Below, piece by piece: positions 13,333-40,615 of a DNA stretch of 64,000 bases (position 1 is the first letter of the stretch; each line of letters opens with the position of its first letter). Source of the DNA: Mustelus asterias. Taxonomy: Eukaryota. Location of the stretch: assembly GCF_964213995.1 (NCBI RefSeq), contig NC_135812.1, forward strand, positions 37,696,001 through 37,760,000, in the 5' to 3' direction. The position numbers and the translations under genes were made by a program. Under the pieces are notes generated by a model. It saw nothing but the letters and a program-made list of their open reading frames with translations. It had not been told where the DNA came from and made no database searches.

Positions 13333-13503
<171 letters not shown>

Positions 13504-14699: not shown

Positions 14700-14910
14700 T
14701 TCAGCCTTGTGTCTTTTTTGAATTACTTGGAGGCTTGGGGAGCCTATATTTCCCTGCTATTTTGTCCATGGCAATGTCTTGGTCAGAGTTGACTTGTCGA
14801 TCAATTAGCATTCTTTTTCTTCTGCAGTATAAATTGTTATGTTGATTTGAAATTTGGCTTTCTTGCATTGTCCGATAGGGTGCAAGGGAAAAAGCTTTGG
14901 CAACATGTCT
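14700..14910 (+). mobile_element. Penelope-like terminal repeat fragment (inverted relative to 20315-20520)
   Basis: Reverse-complement similarity to 20315-20520; degenerate hammerhead-like motif 14868-14903. Confidence 0.55.
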
Positions 14911-15061
14911 CTTGTCAGCAATATTCAAGTTCTGTACGACCAAGTGACTGTCTTACTAATTCCTCGAATCAGTCCCCCTTAGTGATATCAGCAGTCACTA
15001 AATTAATTGTTAAAATTGACAATTCTTGATACTCTTATTTTTCTCTTTTTTTTCCCCAAAG

Positions 15062-15091
15062 GACATCCGAGCTCCTCGAATGGCTCAATTG
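15062..15091 (+). CDS. BCL7B: Candidate 30-nt in-frame cassette microexon of BCL7B
   Basis: Long polypyrimidine tract then AAG|, donor G|GTAAGT, phase 1-1, no stop, (G)HPSSSNGSI. No transcript evidence available. Confidence 0.4.
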
Positions 15092-15590
15092 GTAAGTGTA
15101 TTGACCAGTGTAAAACTAAGAAGATCCCAGGTTCAATTCTGTGCTGAGAGGCGGCACGGTGGCACAATGGTTAACACTGCTGCCTCACAGTACCAGGGAC
15201 CCGGGTTCGATTCCCGGCTTTGGTCATTGTCTGTGTGGAGTTTGCACATTCTCCCCGTGTCTGCGTGGGTTTCCTCCAGGTGCTCCGGTTTCCTCCCACA
15301 GTCCAAAGATGTGCAGGTTAGGTGAATTGGCCATGTCAAATTCTCCCTCAGTGTACCCAAACAGGTGCCGGAGTGTGGCGACTAGGGGATTTTCACAGTA
15401 ACTTCATTGCAGTGTTAATGTAAGACTACTTGTGACTAATAAATAAACTTTAAAATAAACTTTAGAATTAGCTGATCCCAACTCAGCCTCTTTCAGAAAT
15501 GCTACATTCAACCTCTGTGCCCCTGTGTTAGCAATAGGGTTAAAAATCCATCCCAGGTTCTCACTATGATCACTATCCAGTAACTGCTGT
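15070..15590 (+). mobile_element. Old tRNA-derived SINE interrupted by a younger SINE
   Basis: A-box TGGCTCAATTGG 15081-15092, B-box GGTTCAATTC 15130-15139; resumes ~15464; related copies ~19040-19230 and ~44710-44830. Confidence 0.6.
15148..15462 (+). mobile_element. HE1-related V-SINE with alternative 3' tail
   Basis: Same head as HE1 copies; tail CTCAGTGTACCC...GGCGACTAGGGGATTTTCACAGTAAC...AATAAATAAACTTTAAA. Confidence 0.9.
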
Positions 15591-16425
15591 TGAGGTATGT
15601 ATCAGGAAGGACAAGAATTTGGCAGATGGAGTATAATGTGGGGAAATGTGAAGTTGTCCACTTTGGCAGGAAGAATGGAAAAGCAGAATATTAACTAAAT
15701 GGTGAGAGACTGCAGAATGCTGGGATGCAGATGGATCTGAATGTGATTGTACATGAATCACAAAATGTTAGCATGCAGATCCTGCAAGAATTAGGAAGGC
15801 AAATAGAATACCTTTATTGCAAGGGTGGGAGAGGGCGGTGGGGTATAAAAGTAGAGAAGTTTTGTTATAACTACATTGGTGAGATCACATCTAGTGTGCA
15901 GTTTTGGTCACCTTAAGGAGGGATCTACTTCCATTCGAAGCAGTTAAAAGGTTCACTAGACTGATTCCTGGGAGAAAGGGGTTGTCTTTTGAGGAAAGGT
16001 TGAGCAGATTGGGCCTATACTCATTGGAGTTTAGAAGAATGAGAGCTGATCTTATTGAAGCATATAAGATTCTGAGGGGGCTTAACAGGGTAGATGCTGA
16101 GAGAATGTTTCTACTATTGGGGGGATCGAGAGCTGGGTGCACAGTTTCAAAGTAAGGGGTCTCCCATTTAGGCTGGAGATGAAGAGGAATTTCATCTCCC
16201 AGAGGTGAGTGTTGTGTTTGGAAATCTCTTCCCCTGTGAGCTGTGGAGGATGGGTCGTTGAATATATTCAAGGCTGGGCTAGAGAAAATTTGATTAAGGG
16301 TTATGGAGGACAGGCAAGAAAGTGGAGTTAAGGCCACAATCCGATCAGACTTAATCTTATTGACTGATGGAGCAGGCTCGAGGGACCGACTAGACTACTT
16401 CTCCTATTTCTTATGTTTTTATGTT
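15590..16425 (+). mobile_element. CR1 LINE 3' end
   Basis: RFTRLIPGRKGLSFEERLSRLGLYSLEFRRMRADLIE. Confidence 0.92.
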
Positions 16426-17276
16426 CTTAGGACAAATCAAAATCGAAGAACAGTCTTGAAACAAAAGGTACAAAGGGAGACAAAAGCTTCCCACTGATGC
16501 CTGTGTCTGATAACAGCTCCTCTCCCATTCTTCTGGAGCTGAATGGTGAGTGTGTTTAAACTCTATTGCATGGTGCTCTGACATGACCCAGCGCACTTAC
16601 TGCTAGTTTTATTTGATCTATACTGTTACATCTTTTGGGATATGAGTTACGTTGGGGAGGTTGTATTCCATCATTGCCCTGAAATGGTAATGATAAGCTG
16701 TCCTTTTGAGAGATTTATTTAGTTTTTCTCTGCAACTGAGTGGCTTGCAAAGTCACTTCTGAGGGTTTTGAGAATCACTTGTGCAGTGTAGGAGTGGAAT
16801 AACATGTTTGACAGACCTGATATAGATGGTAGGTTGCCTTCCCTGACAGCTATTATGAAATTGGTTGAGATTTTCATGTTGACTTTTTTTCCAGTGTTAT
16901 CCCACAAATTACCATATTTTTCCATATTTGGATTTGAGTTGCTAGTCCAATCTATTACCATACCCACTCTGCTACTGTGTCCCAAGTACCAACTGGTAAA
17001 GAACTGTGTAAAGCAATATCTAATCATTTAAAATTTTCATGTATAATACTAATTGCCAAAACATTGAATGTATTCAAGAGGCGGCTAGAAATAGCACTTG
17101 GGGTGAATGAGATCAAAGGTTATGGGCAGAAAGCAGGATTTGGCTATTGAGTTGGACGATCAGCCATGATTGTGATGAATGGCGGAGCAGGCTCGAAGGC
17201 CAAATGGCCTCCTCCTGCTCCTATCTTCTATGTTTCTACATTTTTATATGGCAATTTTCTTATGCTCACACACAAT

Positions 17277-18146: not shown

Positions 18147-19894
18147 TAATAACTTTGTTGTCCCTAGGCTTGTTCAGCATAACAGTATCAAAGCACTATC
18201 AGAACAATGACATTTCTGTCTGAAATGCTTCTTGTCACAGCCTTAGTTCATCGCCTCAAATTGGCCTCATCATTGGTCCCTAGCAGTAATTAACTTGTAA
18301 CCACCAGAATGTTACCCTAGCTCACAATACATTGTTCAAGTTTGGAAGAACAGAGTAAATAAACAGTTTCTTCTCAAAATTCATGCAGAGTGAAAGTGGC
18401 ATGAAACTTCACTGAAACCTATTGTCAACACTAATGTGAATTCCCAAACTTCATCTCACCCTCTGGGGAAGGAGAGACAATTCAATTGTAAGGAAAGGTG
18501 GAGCACAAGCCACTTTGGGATTGCATAAAACACTTTAGGTGGCTGATTGTAGAGCAGTACAGTAGAGGATAGGAGGTTCTGTGGCATCATGGATAGTGTC
18601 CCTGCCTGAGCCAGAAGCTCCGGTTTGCATCCCATCCCCAGGCTTGATGGCCAAAGAAGGTGCATTCATAATATGACCAAACAGGTTGAGTTTTAACCTG
18701 CAAAGCCTTCCAACATGTGCCAGCAGTACGAGTTGGAGGGATCCCTGGTCAGCCATGTGATGTAAAGAATGTTGGAGCCTTTACCATCACTATCTATTGC
18801 TCCAGATTATAACATGCAAAAGTGCCTGTTGGCACAGCATCTGGGACTCCCTGAGTGAACTGTTAACACACCATCATCACAGGTAGAGAAGCGGAGGAAT
18901 AAATACATAAGGGAAGAAATAATTGAAAATTTGAAATGACTGACCTCCAATACAACTGGTGCTGTGACCTTTATTACATCAACTACAAATTAGATACTAA
19001 TTAATTAATTATATATATATTTTAAAAGAAGCAACACATTTTAGCTCAGTCACTAAATGCATCGACTATCACTGACCATGTATAGAACCTGAAGGTCCCA
19101 GATTTAATTTTTGTTCTTTATCTAATTAAATGGTATCAGTGGTGTCAGGACAGTATTTGGTCAAAGTCCATGGGCTAAGGAGGAAGAAAAATTGGGTAGG
19201 AATTTTCTTACTGATTGTTTACCAGGAACACCTCTACTCTTCAACCGCCTTTCTTCCTCCAACCTCGCAAGCACACCGCTCCACCACCCCACCGCCTTGA
19301 CTGAAAAAAGTGCAGGTGTGGACATCACCTCAGGTTGGTTGTCAAGGTTCCCACTGTTATCTGGGCTGCCAACACTGACTGGCTTTACTGATGGGACCAT
19401 CTCCAGACTTGAGCTCTTCCTTTAATGGAGAGATGAGTCAACTCCTCCAATGGCACCACTTAAACAGCAACATTCTGAGTAGCACAAACTAGTAAGTGTC
19501 ATGTTTGATTCTCAGCTTGATTCTTAATCCCAGTTACTTAGTCTGATTGAGCATCATGGTATGGCTCTGTGATTGGTCTTAACATCCCTGAATCAGGGAT
19601 GGAGAAACAGTTATATTGGATGAGTTGGGCTTGGCTCGGATGCCAGATGTAGGAGAACAATTTGACAGTATTTCCTGTCCAGACTTGTGCATGGAGAATG
19701 GTCACTAGGAACGATATAGCACCTTGTACCCATAAACAAGCAGGAGTCAATGTCTCCAGGGGAGCAGGGATGGAAATTAGGGAAAGAGTTTTAAATTGCG
19801 TATTGATGATGGGCCCAAATTATTGGACTGTTTTTCTCCTTCCTTATGAGAAATTCAGATGATTTAAGTATGTCTTTCCTTTCTAATCTTTCAG

Positions 19895-20065
19895 ATGAGA
19901 CGAGTAATCAAAGCTCCCTGTCAGATGCCTACCAGGTAAAAGTGGACAGCAGTACAAACTCGAGCCCCAGCCCGGAGCAAAGTGAACCTGTCAGCCCAAC
20001 GCTTCTGTCTGATTTTAAAGCAGACGACTCTCAGCCTCCCATGCTTGGGCAGGAAAGCATGGAAG
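19895..20065 (+). CDS. BCL7B: BCL7B internal coding exon (equivalent to human exon 4), BAF/SWI-SNF complex subunit
   Basis: Acceptor tttcag|AT, donor G|gtatgg, 171 nt, phase 1-1. Translates (D)ETSNQSSLSDAYQVKVDSSTNSSPSPEQSEPVSPTLLSDFKADDSQPPMLGQESME, matching recalled human BCL7B DENSNQSSVSDVYQLKVDSSTNSSPSPQQSESLSPAHTSDFRTDDSQPPTLGQEILE. Confidence 0.95.
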
Positions 20066-20905: not shown

Positions 20906-21913
20906 GTCTTGTATTCCAATCCTCTTGCAATAAAAACCAGCATGCCATTTGCCTTCCTAATTGCTAGCTTTGTGTTCCTTGTGTGAATACGCCTCCGTTT
21001 CTCTAACCGTAACATTTAGGTGTTTCATTCATCTTAAAAATCTTCTGCTTTTCTATTCTTACTACCAAAGTAAATACAGTGCAGAAACTTTCCATTTAAA
21101 CCTCCAGTATGTGCTAAAATAACTGATCTCTACAATTGTCCTCAAGATAGGCACACACTCATGTTGTGCCATTCAAAATAAATAGCCTGCTATCACCAAC
21201 GAATGTCCAGAGCCATGAGTGAACAGTAGTGGTTTGAGCAAGATACTGGAAAATATTTGGTGTCCATAGAATTATATCACAACAGTTTTCTTAGAGAGGA
21301 GAACAAGTGTCCCATTGGTTATATGTGCACCTTAACAGTGGTGCTGTAGAACTCACAGTTAGTACTCAGCTTTCTTATCCTCTCTCCGGAAAACAGATTC
21401 TCACTATTGCACAGTCCTATTAGTACTGCAGTTTTTCCTTTGAGTAGTTTGCCATAATTGTTCTATACACCAATACCAATTGCTCCAATAGGGATCAGCT
21501 AACTGAGCCTAGACTATGAGTGTCAGAAGGCTTTACTATTGTCACTGGATAGTAATTAGGAGTGTGAGCCCTGGCTGCTTACTCAACTTTCAGGACACTG
21601 AAGCCAGTTTATAGTGTTCTATCCATTGCCCTCAGCAAGCTCTGAATAAACAAGGAAATAATAGTTCTCTTCCTGTCTAGACACAGTTTCCATTGAATTT
21701 ATTAGAATACTTTCCTGATGGTGTTTGAATGATCAGTGTAAAAAGCTGCTTTGAAAAAATTGCAAACTAACATTCCAATTTCCAGCTTATTTTTGGTTAA
21801 GAGTTTCACTGTTCTCTCTCCTCCTGCTAGAATCACTACCATTTCTCTGTCTGTTATTCAGCAAATGGACATTATGGTTATAGCAGTTGTAATTTGTCAA
21901 TTCTCTCTCACAG

Positions 21914-21993
21914 AACCTTCCCTTCCTTCCTCAGAAGTAGGAGATGACCCTCCAATGCTCACAAAGGAGGAACTGGTTCCCTTGCAGCCTCAG
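21914..21993 (+). CDS. BCL7B: BCL7B penultimate coding exon
   Basis: Acceptor ctctcacag|AA, donor CAG|gtaagc, 80 nt, phase 1-0. (E)PSLPSSEVGDDPPMLTKEELVPLQPQ vs recalled human EPSLPSSEVADEPPTLTKEEPVPLETQ. Confidence 0.95.
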
Positions 21994-23051
21994 GTAAGCC
22001 AGGAACATATTGCGTGCACACCTACATTCAGGAAATACTGAGCTTATATGTATATATTTAAGTAGTTAGAGCAGAACACATGTTTACATTGAGCTCCAAA
22101 ACCAACTTTGAACTCTTTGAACAGCACTTCTCTTACTCAGGTTATTTAGCTCTGTTTGGACATGGGCGAGTCAAATGTGCAAATCCCAGAATTTTATTTT
22201 AGAAAAGCACACAGACTGATGAATGAAGGACAAATCTTAGCCTGTGAATGCATACTGCCATTTTCATTTTGCTATTAATGTTCCTGTTTCAATGCCAGAT
22301 CAAATATCATGTAGTCATAGTGGAAGGGGAATGATTAATTCCTGACAAACACATGGGCGAAAATGGTTAGAGAAATTTTAGCCATGCTGCAGGACCATTG
22401 GTTTATAAATTAAGATGACCATTGCCAACACTTTTAGTGCTCAAGAGAGTAGTACAGTTGTTTAAACGTTTGTACAGGATGGTTTAAAATACACTTAAAA
22501 CATTTGCATTTTATGACTGTAAACCTCATACTTGGGCTTCCTGGTGACTTAGTGGGTTAAAATGATGACAGTTGGGAAGCTACACTTGCCCTTATTTAAA
22601 GAGGGAAAATCGGCTCAAGTTACTGATCACTTTTCCTGTGGTCTTTACTGTGAAAGTAACATTGTGTGGGGACCAGCAGGATGAAGCTTGCTCTGGTGCT
22701 TTCCATAGTTGGGTAGCCTGCAGATTCCCTGTCTTTAGGCTTGCACATGAATAGCCACTTCAGCAAGGTACTGGAAAGTGGTCAACCGGCTAGGATCAAT
22801 GACTAATAGAGCAGAAATTTGAGATGAGGGAACCTGCAGAGTTGATCCAGAAAGCTGAGCTATAGGTTACCCTTTTGGGGGCTTTTTTGGCCTTTTAATT
22901 TTCCTTTTACAAATTAATTCTCTTAGGAATGTTAAAATTATTGTTGTCAGAACCAAACTAAAAAGTGACACCAATAACTTTGAGGTTCAAGAGAGGTACA
23001 GTCTCTCCAGCTCTTTATCTCTAAATTTTTAAATCCCACTGACATTGAATT

Positions 23052-23708: not shown

Positions 23709-23807
23709 GTCGTGGAAGAGGAGGATGATGAAGATTCAGGGGCACCACCACTGAAGAGGGTTTGCACTGGACAGAATGCTGTGACCCAGCCAGTAACTGA
23801 GAGCTAA
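23709..23807 (+). CDS. BCL7B: BCL7B last coding exon, to stop codon
   Basis: Acceptor ttaacag|GTC; VVEEEDDEDSGAPPLKRVCTGQNAVTQPVTES*, TAA at 23805-23807; matches recalled human C-terminus VVEEEEDSGAPPLKRFCVDQPTVPQTASES. Confidence 0.95.
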   Translation, partial: VVEEEDDEDSGAPPLKRVCTGQNAVTQPVTES

Positions 23808-26800
23808 CCCAGAATCTCGACTTGGCTCTATTCCATGGTACACTCTGAATTAACCATCACACAACTGACTGACTGATTTTGAAGAATGATATTTATTTTT
23901 TACTTTTAATGAATTGTGATGGTTGTGACTTTTGGGTCTGAATTTAAAATGTTTCTGTATTGCAGGATGATGTCCCTTTTGTGGGGTGTGGTCCATGGCT
24001 CCACTGGGTCTTCCTAGTTGAAGACACTTTTATATTGATAGTGTCAAAAGCAGTATTCTAATAGAAAGGAATTGCCCTGCTCGCCTCTTAATTAGCATCA
24101 TTTGGGTTTGATGGGTCCTAAGGATACCTATTGAAAGCAAGAAAACGTTGGCCTCCTTCCTATTGGCCCTCCACAGGGAATGGCTGCACACTGCTACAAT
24201 AAAAAAGGTGGAATGGAGATTTAAGGGCTGCTATTATGGAGCTCGAGCATCAATATGAAAGTGCCTTGACACTGAAGTGCCTCCAAGTCTTAATGAAGAT
24301 TAAACGAGCTGATTGAAGACAGATTGATGTTGATTCTTGACTTTATCCCTACACACCCAGTCTTCACCCTGAAATTTTCTCCATGATGCAAAGTTGGAAG
24401 TTGTCATCTGCAGCCAAGGAAGGCACAAAGGGCACAGTTTAAAAAATACTGTTGAAGTTGTATGTAAATACTCAGTACATAAGAACTAAGAGCATTTGGC
24501 CCCTTGAACTTGCTCTGCCATTCAGTAAGATCATGGCTGGTCTGATCTTGACCTCAACCCCACTTTCCTGTCTTTTACCCATACCCTTGACTCTCTATAC
24601 TTCAAAAATCTGTCTGTCTCAATCTTGAATACATTCATGACTCAGCTTCCACAATGCTCTGGGGTACAGAATTCCAAAGATTCATGACCCACTGAGAACA
24701 GGAATTTCTCCTCATCTCTGTTTTAAATGGGAGACCTTCTCGTCTGAAACTCTGCTTCCTAAGTTCTAGATTCCATCACAAGGGAAAATATCCTGTCAGC
24801 ATCCACTCTGTCAAGCCCTGTCAGAATTTTATGTAAGATCATCTCTTTTTCCTAACTCCAATGAGTATAGACCGAACCTGCTCAACATTTCCTGATAAAA
24901 CAGCTCTGTAAGACTAGCATACAAACCAAGTATATTTGATTTTATAGCCTCGTTCGAGCAAGACCGGAAATTCCCGCCCGAGGTCACCGGACATTTCCGT
25001 TGTCCGCCCCTCGCCTGCTCCGATTCCGTGGCAGGTGGGGCGGTAATGTTCTGGCGTACATTTCTGGAGCTAATCATTTTAATAAATTTGCTTAAGAAAA
25101 AAAGATTGGGAAATCTTGTGGAGAAACAATATCTTTAGATATTGTTGGCTTTTGCTGTACCTTTTGCAGATACAGAAAAGTATGCACTTTTTCACTGATA
25201 CTGAACCAATTTTCTGTACCTTGTTAAACAGGACTCGCATTTTCCCTTTGGGAGAACTCTACAGTGACTCACAGATGATTTAGAGATTTACTAAGAAAAT
25301 AAATAAATTTTGTTCTTGGATATGTTCACCTTCAGTGGAAAACCAGCCAGGATTCTTGCTCCTTATGACTATGACATTAAAATGTATGTATAGATGACTT
25401 GATGACTGGGTTGGATTTAATTGTAATTCCCTCCGCATTTGAATTGTCTTGTCAGCACTGACTGCATAGGGTCACACAAGATTGACTACTTCAGCAACAT
25501 AATTGAAGGCTGCTGGCACCCATGGAATAGAATCCCAGCAAGGAGCTGGCAAGTTGAGAGGAAGAGGAAAGAAAATTTCTTCTCAGCTACCAAAACAAAT
25601 CACATTCCATTGCTTTGGTCACTAAATCAAACGGCTGCTGTCTTCTGCAGCTGATTTTACTGAAAACAGACAACTTCCTAACTAGAGATGATACTAAATG
25701 CCAGCTGTGTAATATGACAAGTAATACTGATTAATCAACAAGTTTAACAAAATACAATCAGACAGTTGTAGTATGAAGATCCTTAAACATAGTCATGATC
25801 CCAGTGTTTCCCACTGGTTATCATACAACACTATTTCAGTTCTTATTGAAAACATCATTGTTTGACCATCTTAATTATTAGCTGGGATGTTGCCAACTGA
25901 TGAGTATTTTGTGAAAATGCATTGGGACTTACATGAAAAAGTATCACTTAGGAGTGGTACAAGAAATCTGGGACTTGTCTAACCTACCCCCAGCCCCTGC
26001 AAGAGCCAACCAACACTTTAAGGAAAGGAGAACATTTTCAAAAATAAAACCTTGGACATTCATCACACTGACTTTATTTTAAAGCTATTATATATTTTGT
26101 AACCCCAACTTTGCAAAATGTTTTTCTGTATAATTTTCTCATTGCCTCTTTAGTGCATAAAAATCATTTATTAATTGGACAATGAAAAGGCAGTTCAGGG
26201 GAAAGCATAATATTTTCTTCTTATCCCCATTATCCTTGGAGCCTGCCCGTCTTAATGGAAGTTTCTCCCAGGACACAGTGCTCCTGCCTAAGCATCCACT
26301 CTTTCAGCCCTTCACAAATGGCCCAAAACGTGTGTTCTTGTGGTGTCCCCCCGTCAAATCCTTACTCATGATCTATGCTTGCTGCCTGGCCTAGGTGTAT
26401 ATCAATGTTGTTTGAGTTTGGTACTTAATTTCCAATCCCCACTTGCTGTTGTCCTCATTTTGTTTTCAACTTTTCTGTTTGGTGTGCATGGCTCTCCCCT
26501 CTTTTATACATCTGTCCATCTACAAATCTTCTCACTGTCTCCAATTAGGTCATTATAACTTTATTCGCCATATGAAAAGCAGGTAATAGTGAATTGGCAG
26601 CCATTTTAAACCTGCCCAATGTTTCATTTCTACTGAAGTTGATTGAAAAGTAAATGAGGTAGAATGTAAAATGGGCAGCATATCTGCTATCACTTGTTTT
26701 TCAGAGCAGTGCAAGTTAAAAGTACCTCCAATCTCTCCTGTCCAAAAGTGGATCTGGCTGCATTTTGTATAGCTTTTGTATTTTATGCTTCAATATCTTG

Positions 26801-35685: not shown

Positions 35686-36054
35686 GCTCACTTAATGGGA
35701 TAATTCTTTACTTTATCCTTGGGTTGTTTACTGCATGAGTCCCTCCAAGAAGGGGGTCTGGTTTAGATGATTTTGTATGGGTTGAGGATCGATACAAGAG
35801 GAGCCTAAGGAGAAGAAAGCTGAGCAATTGTGCAGCAAGAATTCAGCAGTGTCCCCAGTTACCAGACGGGGTTGTTTCTGATCAGAAAGCTTTAGGAGAT
35901 GGAGTGCCAGCCTCAGTGTTGCTGCACTGCTGCCTGGAGTCGGGCCCACCGAGGCTGGGGAGCAGGATGGCAATCGTTATGAACGGCTCCGTGGACTATC
36001 CCCAGCGGCCAGAAGAGTGTCTGTCCCACCGCCAGCAGGCCGGAGGCCTAGTCC

Positions 36055-36102
36055 GTCGCTATGGGAACCGCAGCCCCGCCCTTTCTCCGTTGCCGTGGTA
36101 AC
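36055..36102 (+). promoter_or_regulatory. MKS1 promoter: two RFX X-boxes flanking a GC box, in a CpG-rich segment
   Basis: GTCGCTATGGGAAC (36055-36068), CCCCGCCC (36074-36081), GTTGCCGTGGTAAC (36089-36102); fits X-box consensus GTNRCC/T-N-RGYAAC typical of ciliary genes. Confidence 0.85.
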
Positions 36103-36109
36103 CGGGGAA

Positions 36110-36161
36110 ATGGCGGATTGCAGCAGCGAGAGAGTGGAGGCGATTTACCGTTACCGAACCC
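36110..36161 (+). CDS. MKS1: MKS1 exon 1 (start codon; 3' part lost in assembly gap)
   Basis: gaaATGG Kozak context; MADCSSERVEAIYRYRTP vs recalled human [20 protein letters not shown]; runs into the N-gap. Confidence 0.85.
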
Positions 36162-36361
36162 NNNNNNNNNNNNNNNNNNNNNNNNNNNNNNNNNNNNNNN
36201 NNNNNNNNNNNNNNNNNNNNNNNNNNNNNNNNNNNNNNNNNNNNNNNNNNNNNNNNNNNNNNNNNNNNNNNNNNNNNNNNNNNNNNNNNNNNNNNNNNNN
36301 NNNNNNNNNNNNNNNNNNNNNNNNNNNNNNNNNNNNNNNNNNNNNNNNNNNNNNNNNNNNN
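36162..36361. other. Assembly gap (200 N)
   Basis: Run of N. Confidence 1.
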
Positions 36362-39300
36362 GTGGGGGGGGTGAGATTGATTGGGTTGGGGGGGTGGGGG
36401 GGGTGAGATTGATTGGGGGGGTGGGGTGGGGGTGAGATTGATTGGGTGGGTGGGGTGGGGTGAGATTGATTGGGGGGTGGGGGTGGGGGGGGTGAGATTG
36501 ATTGGGGGGGTGAGATTGATTGGGTTGGGGGGGTGTGGTGGATTTGTGGGGGTGGGGGGGTGAGATTGATTGGGGGGTGGGGGGGTGAGATTGATTGGGG
36601 GGTGGGGGGGTGAGATTGATTGGGGGGTGGGGTGGGGGGGTGAGATTGATTGGGGGGTGGGGTGGGGGGGTGAGATTGATTGGGGGGTGGGGGTGGGGGG
36701 GTGAGATTGATGTGGGGGTGGGGGGGTGAGATTGATGTGGGGGTGGGGGGGTGAGATTGATGTGGGGGTGGGGGGGTGAGATTGATTGGGGGGGTGAGAT
36801 TGATTGGGGGGGTGGGGTTGGTGAGATTGATGGGGGGGGTGAGATTGATTGGGGGGGTGGGGGGGGTGAGATTGATTGGGGGGTGGGGGGGTGAGATTGA
36901 TTGGGGGGTGGGGGGGGTGAGATTGATTGGGGGGGTGGGGGGGGTGAGATTGATTGGGGGGGGTGAGATTGATTGGGTTGGGGGGTGGGGGGGTGAGATT
37001 GATTGGGTTGGGGGGTGGGGGGGGTGAGATTGATTGGGGGGGGTGAGATTGATTGGGTGGGTGGGTGGGGTGGGGTGAGATTGATTGGGGGGTGGGGGTG
37101 GGGGTGGGGGGGTGAGATTGATTGGGGGGTGGGGGTGGGGGGGTGAGATTGATTGGGGGGTGGGGGTGGGGGGGTGAGATTGATTGGGGGGTGGGGGGTG
37201 GGGGGGTGAGATTGATTGGGGGGTGGGGTGGGGGGGTGAGATTGATTGGGGGGTGGGGGTGGGGGGTGAGATTGATTGGGGGGTGGGGGTGGGGGGGTGA
37301 GATTGATTGGGGGGTGGGGGGGTGAGAATGATTGGGGGGTGGGGGTGGGGGGTGAGATTGATTGGGGGGTGGGGTTGGGGGGGTGAGATTGATTGGGGGG
37401 TGGGGGTGGGGGGGTGAGATTGATTGGGGGGTGGGGGTGGGGGGTGAGATTGATTGGGGGGTGGGGGTGGGGGGTGAGATTGATTGGGGGGTGGGGGGGT
37501 GAGATTGATTGGGGGGTGGGGGGGTGAGATTGATTGGGGGGTGGGGGGGTGAGATTGATTGGGGGGTGGGGGTGGGGGGGTGAGATTGATGTGGGGGTGG
37601 GGGGGTGAGATGATGTGGGGGTGGGGGGGTGAGATTGATGTGGGGGTGGGGGGGTGAGATTGATGTGGGGGTGGGGGGGGTGAGATTGATGTGGGGGTGG
37701 GGGGGTGAGATTGATGTGGGGGTGGGGGGGTGAGATTGATGTGGGGGTGGGGGGGTGAGATTGATTGGGGGGTGGGGGGGTGAGATTGATTGGGGGGTGG
37801 GGGGGTGAGATTGATTGGGGGGTGGGGGGGTGAGATTGATTGGGGGGTGGGGGGGTGAGATTGATTGGGGGGTGGGGTGGGGGGGTGAGATTGATTGGGG
37901 GGTGGGGGTGGGGGGGTGAGATTGATTGGGGGGTGGGGGGGTGAGATTGATTGGGGGGTGGGGGTGGGGGGGTGAGATTGATTGGGGGGTGGGGGTGGGG
38001 GGGTGAGATTGATTGGGTGGGTGGGGGGGGGTGAGATTGATTGGGTGGGTGGGGGGGGGTGAGATTGATTGGTTGGGTGGGTGGGGGGGGGTGAGATTGA
38101 TTGGTTGGGTGGGTGGGGGGGGTGAGATTGATTGGTTGGGTGGGTGGGGGGGGGTGAGATTGATTGGTTGGGTGGGTGGGGGGGGGTGAGATTGATTGGG
38201 GGGTGGGGGTGGGGGTGGGGGGGTGAGATTGATTGGGGGGTGGGGGTGGGGGGGTGAGATTGATTGGGGGGTGGGGGTGGGGGGGTGAGATTGATTGGGG
38301 TGGGGGTGGGGGGGGTGAGATTGATTGGGGGGGCGGGGTGAGATTGATTGATTGGGAGGGGCGGGGTGAGATTGATTGATTGGGAGGGGCGGGGTGAGAT
38401 TGATTGGGGGGCGGGGTGAGATTGATTGGGGGGGCGGGGTGAGATTGATTGGGGGGGGCGGGGTGAGATTGATTGGGGGGGCGGGGTGAGATTGATTGGG
38501 GGGGGCGGGGTGAGATTGATTGGGGGGGGCGGGGTGAGATTGATTGGGGGGTGGGGGGGTGAGATTGATTGGGGGGTGGGGGGTGAGATTGATTGGGGGG
38601 TGGGGGTGGGGGGGGTGAGATTGATTGGGGTGGGGGGGTGAGATTGATTGGGGGGGCGGGGTGAGATTGATTGATTGGGAGGGGCGGGGTGAGATCGATT
38701 GGGGGGGCGGGGTGAGATTGATTGGGGGGGGGCGGGGTGAGATTGATTGGGGGGGGCGGGGTGAGATTGATTGGGGGGGGCGGGGTGAGATTGATTGGGG
38801 GGGGCGGGGTGAGATTGATTGGGGGGGGCGGGATGAGATTGATTGGGGGGGGCGGGGTGAGATTGATTGGGGGGGGGCGGGGTGAGATTGATTGATTGGG
38901 AGGGGCGGGGTGTGATTGATTGGGGGGGCGGGGTGAGATTGATTGGGGGGGGCGGGGTGAGATTGATTGGGGGGGCGGGGTGAGATTGATTGGGGGGGTG
39001 GGGTGAGATTGATTGGCGGGGCGGGGTGAGATTGATTGGGGGGGGCGGGGTGAGATTGATTGGGGGGGGCGGGGTGAGATTGATTGGGGGGGGCGGGGTG
39101 AGATTGATTGGGGGGGGCGGGGTGAGATTGATTGGGGGGGGCGGGGTGAGATTGATGGGGGGGGGAGTGAGATTGATGGGGGGGGGAGTGAGATTGATGG
39201 GGGGGGGAGGGGAGAGAGAGAGATTGATGCGGCGGGGGGAGTGTGATTGATGGGGGAGGGGAAGTGAGATTGATGGGGGTGGGGGAGTGAGATTGATGGG

Positions 39301-40510
39301 GGGGGGGGGAGTGAGATTGATGGGGGGGGAGTGAGATTGATGGGGGGGTGGGGGTGGGGGGGTGAGATTGATTGGGGGGTGGGGTGGGGGGGTGAGATTG
39401 ATTGGGGGGTGGGGGTGGGGGGGTGAGATTGATTGGGGGGGGGGGCGGGGTGAGATTGATTGATTGGGGGGGGCGGGGTGAGATTGATTGATTGGGGGGG
39501 GGTGAGATTGATTGATTGGGGGGGGCGGGGTGAGATTGATTGATTGGGGGGGGGCGGGGTGAGATTGATTGATTGGGGGGGGCGGGGTGAGATTGATTGA
39601 TGGGGGGGGCGGGGTGAGATTGATTGATCGGGGGGGCGGGGTGAGATTGATTGATTGGGGGGGCGGGGGTGAGATTGATTGATTGGGAGGGGCGGGGTGA
39701 GATTGATTGGGGGGGCGGGGTGAGATTGATTGGGGGGGCGGGGTGAGATTGATTGGGGGGGCGGGGTGAGATAGATTGGGGGGGCGGGGTGAGATAGATT
39801 GGGGGGGGCGGGGTGAGATTGATTGGGGGGGGCGGGGTGAGATTGATTGGGGGGGCGGGGTGAGATTGATTGATTGGGAGGGGCGGGGTGAGATTGATTG
39901 GGGGGGCGGGGTGAGATTGATTGGGGGGGTGGGGTGAGATTGATTGGGGGGGGCGGGGTGAGATTGATTGGGGGGGGGCGGGGTGAGATTGATTGGGGGG
40001 GGCGGGGTGAGATTGATTGATTGGGAGGGGCGGGGTGAGATTGATTGGGGGGGCGGGGTGAGATTGATTGGGGGGGCGGGGTGAGATTGATTGGGGGGGC
40101 GGGGTGAGATTGATTGGGGGGGGCGGGGTGAGATTGATTGGGGGGGGCGGGGTGAGATTGATTGGGGGGGGCGGGGTGAGATTGATTGGGGGGGGCGGGG
40201 TGAGATTGATTGGGGGGGCGGGGTGAGATTGATTGGGGGGGGCGGGGTGAGATTGATTGGGGGGGGCGGGGTGAGATTGATGGGGGGGGGGAGTGAGATT
40301 GATGGGGGGGGGAGGGGAGAGAGAGAGATTGATGGGGGAGGGGAAGTGAGATTGATGGGGGGGGGGAGTGAGATTGATGGGGGGGGGGGGAGTGAGATTG
40401 ATGGGGGCGGGGGGGAGTGAGATTGATGGGGGGGGGGAGTGAGATTGATGGGGGGGGGGGGGGAGAGTGAGATTGATGCCGGGGGGGGTGGGGGGAAGTG
40501 AGATGGATGC
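36362..40510 (+). repeat. G-rich minisatellite in MKS1 intron 1, unit GTGAGATTGATT + G-tracts (GGGGGGT/CGGG)
   Basis: Directly visible tandem array of ~20-35 nt units with a nearly invariant TGAGATTGAT core. Confidence 0.98.
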
Positions 40511-40615
40511 GGCGGGGGCCTCCAAGCAAGTGTAGTGCTATTGATGGGTTTACGGAATTAAAATAATTTTAATCGAAGGTTGCCTGAAGGAAGAAATTAA
40601 GTATTTTTTTTAAAG

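Follow-up and report, generated by a model that had tools for sequence, protein, structure and literature searches.

A thirty-nucleotide BCL7B exon of sharks and rays with a probable origin in the A-box region of an old tRNA-derived SINE

Intron 2 of BCL7B in the shark Mustelus asterias contains a 30-nt cassette exon whose 5' splice site lies in the Pol III A-box of an old tRNA-derived SINE, and protein models of both sharks and batoids include this exon. Taking its origin and its splicing together, we put the probability that it is an old, retained SINE exonisation at roughly 87%. Public protein models already contain the exon; a SINE origin for it did not turn up in the literature searched. 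In this reading a retroposon's promoter box would have been turned into a splice donor and would have become fixed protein sequence in a core subunit of chromatin remodelling, in sharks and rays alike, a clean and datable case.

Gene structure and splice signals of the cassette exon

The window, i.e., the stretch of 64,000 nt analysed here, was aligned with BCL7B protein models, giving the following features:

L002:5651-5742, upstream of the window: BCL7B exon 1, coding
13350..13425, + strand: BCL7B exon 2, 76 nt, ending in phase 0 and encoding the last part of the beta-hairpin that binds actin/ACTL6A (P0001 and P0112 match exactly)
15038..15061, + strand: polypyrimidine tract and acceptor AG of the cassette exon, outside the SINE
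15062..15091, + strand: cassette exon, 30 nt, phase 0-0, DIRAPRMAQL, residues 57-66 of P0001 (proteins and SINE alignment)
16431..16545, + strand: BCL7B exon 3, 115 nt, phase 0-1 (overlooked in the earlier note)
19895..20065, + strand: BCL7B exon 4, phase 1 (match to protein models)
21914..21993, + strand: BCL7B exon 5, with a second acceptor at 21935 (match to protein models)
23709..23807, + strand: BCL7B exon 6, coding portion up to the stop codon (match to protein models)

The cassette exon lies in intron 2, between exon 2 and exon 3, and since exon 2 ends in phase 0 it is a phase 0-0 exon reading DIRAPRMAQL. Together with the cassette the window exons translate letter for letter to P0001, and without it to P0112. 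Both are Mustelus asterias BCL7B-like models by source label and are therefore not independent of the window sequence.

The splice signals of the exon are strong on both sides. All 20 positions at 15038-15057 are pyrimidines, the acceptor AG is at 15060-15061, the exon runs for exactly 30 nt (15062-15091), and its 3' end, G|GTAAGT, is a full U1 match; an A-box-like motif is found at 15081-15092 and a B-box at 15130-15139. The earlier note on this DNA had placed every one of these elements correctly. An acceptor of such strength is rare, with only 65 of the 116,586 AG dinucleotides in an 864-kb sample of the same genome preceded by a tract of at least 19 pyrimidines in 20. Neural microexons of the SRRM4 type are at most 27 nt long, carry a UGC motif in the upstream pyrimidine tract and are included specifically in neural tissue; the cassette exon falls outside this type, with its 30 nt and no TGC in 15030-15061.

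The earlier note had taken the exon at 19895 for the next one and had read the segment as a phase 1-1 exon directly before it, adding the peptide GHPSSSNGSI. The frame is indeed open in that phase, but exon 3 intervenes and, splicing being collinear, the segment cannot follow exon 3. Joining it directly to exon 4 shifts the frame and leads to a stop at codon 81, and GHPSSSNGSI was present in 0 of the 147 proteins fetched. Position, phase and peptide were all wrong because exon 3 had been missed, and we give this version practically no credence. Its central proposal, a SINE-derived BCL7B cassette exon with an A-box donor, finds support both in protein models and in independent profile matches, while the term "lineage-specific" holds only broadly, for an exon common to sharks and batoids, and fails for a recent event in one species. 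The observation is thus partly confirmed, and the interpretation was right in kind and wrong in detail.

Several other features were observed in the gene and its surroundings. The two exon 5 acceptors, 21914 and 21935, are 21 nt apart and both appear in shark and ray models (7 residues in or out). The first residue of exon 3 is missing in some skate and Heterodontus models (P0102, P0103, P0107 and P0108), as expected of a tandem (NAGNAG) acceptor; the window's own exon 3 start offers none. A BCL7 paralogue is present on another contig (G000:C13:108400922-108444349). Downstream in the window, a G-rich tandem array of ~4 kb (36365-40518; period ~24, 159 copies, GC skew 0.9) directly follows a gap of 200 N (36162-36361) and a CpG-rich stretch at ~36000-36160, which may be a first exon.

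Distribution of the exon and evidence for its inclusion

The peptide D[IV]RAPRM[AT][QH]L was found in 32 of the 35 elasmobranch BCL7B proteins fetched, in none of the 4 Callorhinchus proteins and in none of 108 others, absence in these outgroups being read from proteins only. The set comprised 39 chondrichthyan BCL7B proteins (one cluster being represented by 15 of its 17 members) and the 108 others, mostly from bony vertebrates, with paralogues and fragments among them. The including proteins come from 20 named species (12 sharks and 8 batoids), which span both shark superorders as well as skates, electric ray, sawfish and stingrays, and from two proteins on short contigs. Among the 32 hits of a search for shorter proteins, none was a chondrichthyan fragment by its label. 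From the same proteins we infer that the SINE is present at this site in rays and absent from it in Callorhinchus.

The three elasmobranch models without the peptide are from Mustelus, Mobula and Pristiophorus. In all three, including and skipping models stand side by side, making the exon an alternative cassette at the model level, where isoform numbers are no measure of abundance. Two Logan-only proteins with the peptide (P0002 and P0096) are encoded on contigs of 910 and 1194 nt; as these exons are spread over more than 10 kb in the present genome, the contigs would derive from spliced templates. In addition, the GenBank accession GCC29821.1 has the same including sequence as P0088. The protein models establish the 30-nt segment as a real BCL7B exon and, with the two short-contig proteins, argue indirectly that it is spliced into mRNA.

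Within the peptide, 7 of the 10 residues are invariant over 17 sequences. Its mean shark-batoid identity is 0.84, the same as that of exon 3 (0.84, with 26 of 38 residues invariant) and below that of exons 1-2, 4 and 5-6 (0.97-1.00). Length, frame and these seven residues are kept across sharks and batoids, and such variation as occurs is species-consistent, which points to purifying selection on the exon at the peptide level. In a neutral simulation of a single pair, a weak test, the probability that at least 8 of the 10 residues are kept was 0.36 at 15% divergence and 0.011 at 35%.

One could argue that the splice signals are real but rarely used, and that a nearly neutral, low-level cryptic exon, or an annotation carry-over, has been copied across species by the pipeline. 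Most of the support does come from models of one annotation pipeline, whose independence across species is not assured; skipping models exist in three genera, and the neutral simulation alone does not decide the matter. This is nevertheless improbable, given that 32 of the 35 elasmobranch models include the exon, that the peptide varies consistently with species while its length, frame and seven residues persist in sharks and batoids, and that it also appears on the Logan-only spliced contigs and in a GenBank annotation.

A different insertion, of ~30 residues, occurs at the same exon 2/exon 3 junction in caecilian BCL7B models of two genera (P0021, P0024 and P0025). This suggests an independent exon gain or retention at that junction, and also that the junction is a permissive site.

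Probable SINE origin of the exon

The following elements were mapped around the 3' half of the exon and downstream of it:

15068..15147, + strand: 5' part (tRNA-derived head) of an old SINE, in gene orientation (masked profiles; the head aligns to shark tRNAs)
15081..15097, + strand: Pol III A-box containing the 5' splice site; tRNA-equivalent G18 ends the exon and D-loop G19-T20 forms the intron GT
15130..15139, + strand: Pol III B-box of the old SINE, intronic (motif and profile)
15148..15464, + strand: younger, abundant SINE inserted into the old SINE just after the B-box (many close copies in 264 kb)
15464..15615, + strand: body of the old SINE, resuming past the younger insertion (E 4.3e-9 with a profile built without the locus)

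Profiles were built from other copies in 0.86-0.97 Mb of the same genome, with 14900-15800 masked. The locus-masked profile matched at 15071-15147 (E 3.8e-4) and at 15464-15615 (E 4.3e-9). Because positions in the old-SINE model run on from 127 to 126 across the gap between the head and body matches, the two belong to one old element split by a younger SINE, which we take to be HE1-like. A head-focused profile, also with the locus masked, matched 15068-15147 (E 3.5e-5). Around 7 nt of the exon thus come from the flank and ~23 nt from the SINE head. No family match was obtained in the region of the pyrimidine tract, and no profile hit upstream of 15068; the idea that the tract is the antisense tail of a second SINE copy was dropped, as no profile hit it.

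The 34-nt block 15070-15103, comprising the SINE part of the exon and the donor, scored 24.9 bits on a matrix derived from 47 other copies, a score that 4 of 1,923,014 positions attain, with the training copies counted in. The B-box and the body are collinear with the A-box block at the expected spacing. These observations bear on the possibility that the exon is ancient host sequence, either resembling a SINE A-box by chance or merely adjoined by the SINE. The matching part of the exon is only ~23 nt long and 68% identical to the family majority, which would suit such an account, but the collinearity, the rarity of the score and the outgroup proteins without the exon leave it very little room. 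The exon part turned out not to be closer to the consensus than the intronic part (0.68, against 0.76 in the head and 0.65 in the body), in a comparison whose copies had in part been selected through a motif in the intronic head.

Shark tRNA-Lys(UUU) and tRNA-Cys align with the family head in both the D-arm and the T-arm. This was seen with 8 of the 8 genes fetched (2 Lys and 6 Cys types), and 0-3 of 300 shuffles aligned as well. This alignment places the exon end at the counterpart of G18 and makes the D-loop G19-T20 the first two bases of the intron. Neither ARAGORN nor Rfam detected a tRNA or RNA family, be it in the window or in the SINE head, and the Rfam tRNA model left the decayed SINE copies unmatched.

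The old SINE family gave 52 hits in 864 kb; ten other contigs, sampled over 400 kb, contributed 8 of these, and motif hits occurred on many contigs. A genome-wide DNA search with the SINE head returned only the locus itself and single-copy queries gave no significant hits, failures that we attribute to the age of the family, for which profiles are needed. From its resemblance we presume that the family is probably SacSINE1, of the Deu family. From head to tail it has ~410 well-occupied consensus columns, vs 463 bp for SacSINE1 in the available text of PMC2746220. SacSINE1 is further marked by a Deu central domain and by a 3' tail that it shares with an L2 LINE; the match of the copy at the locus ends at ~15615, before the tail.

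More decayed copies of the old family lie in or just after BCL7B (19030-19400, 19500-19740, 21165-21660, 22540-22830 and 25335-25530), one copy ending ~160 nt upstream of exon 4. None of these further copies is represented in the protein models.

What set this copy apart

The majority donor of the family is G|GTAAAT, position +5 being A in 22 of 31 copies and G in 7, and the copy at the locus reads GTAAGT. Genome-wide, an intact A-box is followed by GTAAGT in 10 places (locus included) and by GTAAAT in 20, family membership being confirmed for part of the 29 other loci. Among these intact-A-box copies (L117-L146), T at -2 accompanies G at +5 in 7 of 9 cases, against 7 of 20 when +5 is A (p=0.05), a weak link hinting at subfamilies that differ in latent donor strength. 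The donor may have been brought ready-made by a subfamily with G at +5; a single A-to-G change at +5 after insertion is another conceivable source.

In the 9 other GTAAGT copies the pyrimidine tract reached at best 15/20, and none of the nine found support as an exon when judged on sequence signals. Likewise, 0 of the 30 copies found by profile had a strong acceptor together with a good donor. It is the acceptor that is rare, whether already present at insertion or sharpened afterwards. One copy (L134) has an 18/20 pyrimidine tract and an AG 60 nt upstream of a weaker donor.

Proposed history and dating

We propose that the old tRNA-derived SINE landed in sense orientation in intron 2 of BCL7B, its 5' end ~7 nt downstream of an AG, and that its A-box carried a latent 5' splice site. 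The flank acceptor and the SINE donor would then have defined a 30-nt exon that keeps the frame, contains no stop and adds the ten residues DIRAPRMAQL. Skipped in some transcripts, this exon would have been retained by purifying selection, and the younger SINE would have landed later in the intronic part of the old one.

The split between sharks and batoids is dated to roughly 270-300 Ma, and the presence of the exon on both sides implies that it predates this split. Its absence from the protein models of one holocephalan species suggests that it is younger than the holocephalan split, placed at 421 Ma in the accessible part of PMC5499810, whereas SacSINE1 itself predates that split. The SINE could also have been inserted earlier, before holocephalans and elasmobranchs separated, the exon having since been lost, never activated or left unannotated in Callorhinchus. 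Such a date would fit the presence of SacSINE1 as an old element in C. milii, with an origin at ~434-488 Ma (PMC5499810, as far as its available text goes), and the holocephalan sample consists of one species known from protein models only. However, none of the 4 Callorhinchus models, which come from several sources, has the peptide, and in the same partial source 34 of 34 SacSINE1-CM hits in C. milii mRNAs fall in 3' UTRs (PMC5499810), although a 23-nt match would escape such a search. We therefore hold the earlier insertion to be possible but unlikely, and favor an exon that arose after the holocephalan split and before that of sharks and batoids.

Likely effect on the protein

In human BCL7B, according to the portions available of two structural papers, residues 2-18 bind the nucleosome acidic patch and residues 26-51 clamp ACTL6A and beta-actin (PMC12884074, PMC13279755); from residue 52 onward the protein is unresolved in cryo-EM (PMC12884074). 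The cassette residues, 57-66, follow residue 56 and are therefore located just past the actin/ACTL6A-binding hairpin. An AlphaFold2 model based on 28 sequences has structure only at residues 11-50 and coil beyond, residues 57-66 included, with pLDDT dropping from 61 (residues 51-60) to 46 (residues 61-70).

The function of the cassette is probably modest. We lean slightly toward the ten residues being a basic extension that is tolerated and under mild constraint where the disordered tail begins, and which would tune spacing or weak contacts and leave the core fold unchanged. It is doubtful that the SINE-derived RAPRM motif acts as a functional, splicing-controlled switch beside the nucleosome/ARP-binding module and is the first known instance of a larger set of exons in sharks and rays that take a tRNA D-loop GT donor from a SINE A-box.

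Comparison with known systems

SINE exonisation as such is well established; in cartilaginous fishes exonisation has been little studied. Our literature search, with most subscription journals and some supplements outside its reach, gave no paper on this exon or on coding exons derived from SINEs in elasmobranchs, and searches of supplements, in part, of PMC4824008 (one of two files) and PMC5804259 gave no hits. The exon can serve as a presence/absence marker for elasmobranchs, and the case allows a direct test of whether further coding exons of cartilaginous fishes trace back to the old SINE family.

As far as the available text of three papers goes, SacSINE1/DeuSINE is an old tRNA-headed SINE of sharks and rays, ~463 bp long, with strongly diverged copies, and its amniote relative AmnSINE1 has been exapted as enhancers (PMC5499810, PMC4824008, PMC2746220). 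In that text the accounts of this group deal with enhancers, copies in 3' UTRs and miRNA matches, whereas the shark case is a coding exon (PMC5499810, PMC4824008, PMC2746220).

Alu and MIR exonisation, as described in parts of two papers, draws on latent SINE splice sites; the elements are mostly antisense, and their poly(A) tail provides the pyrimidine tract (PMC7786948, PMC2911107). The shark exon is similar in that a latent SINE splice site gave rise to a cassette exon, and disordered sequence is also what the MIR exon of IGF-1 adds; unlike these cases, the shark element is in sense orientation and its tract comes from the host flank. The LF-SINE exons of tetrapods, e.g., that of PCBP2 (Bejerano et al. 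2006), number 19 in the summary given by PMC9148063, of which 16 are alternative and 11 add an early stop. They too show an ancient tRNA-type SINE giving rise to a retained, mostly alternative coding exon, but they stem from another SINE family in another lineage, and the shark exon differs in keeping the frame and in owing only its donor half to the SINE.

The zebrafish HE1 SINE is exonised in sense orientation with splice sites in its tRNA-related 5' region (PMC2911107, in part). Sense orientation and a splice site from the tRNA-related head of a fish SINE are thus common to both. In contrast to the zebrafish exons, which are documented at the EST level in one species, the shark exon is kept in both sharks and batoids, and it owes its donor to an older family, not to the adjoining HE1-like element.
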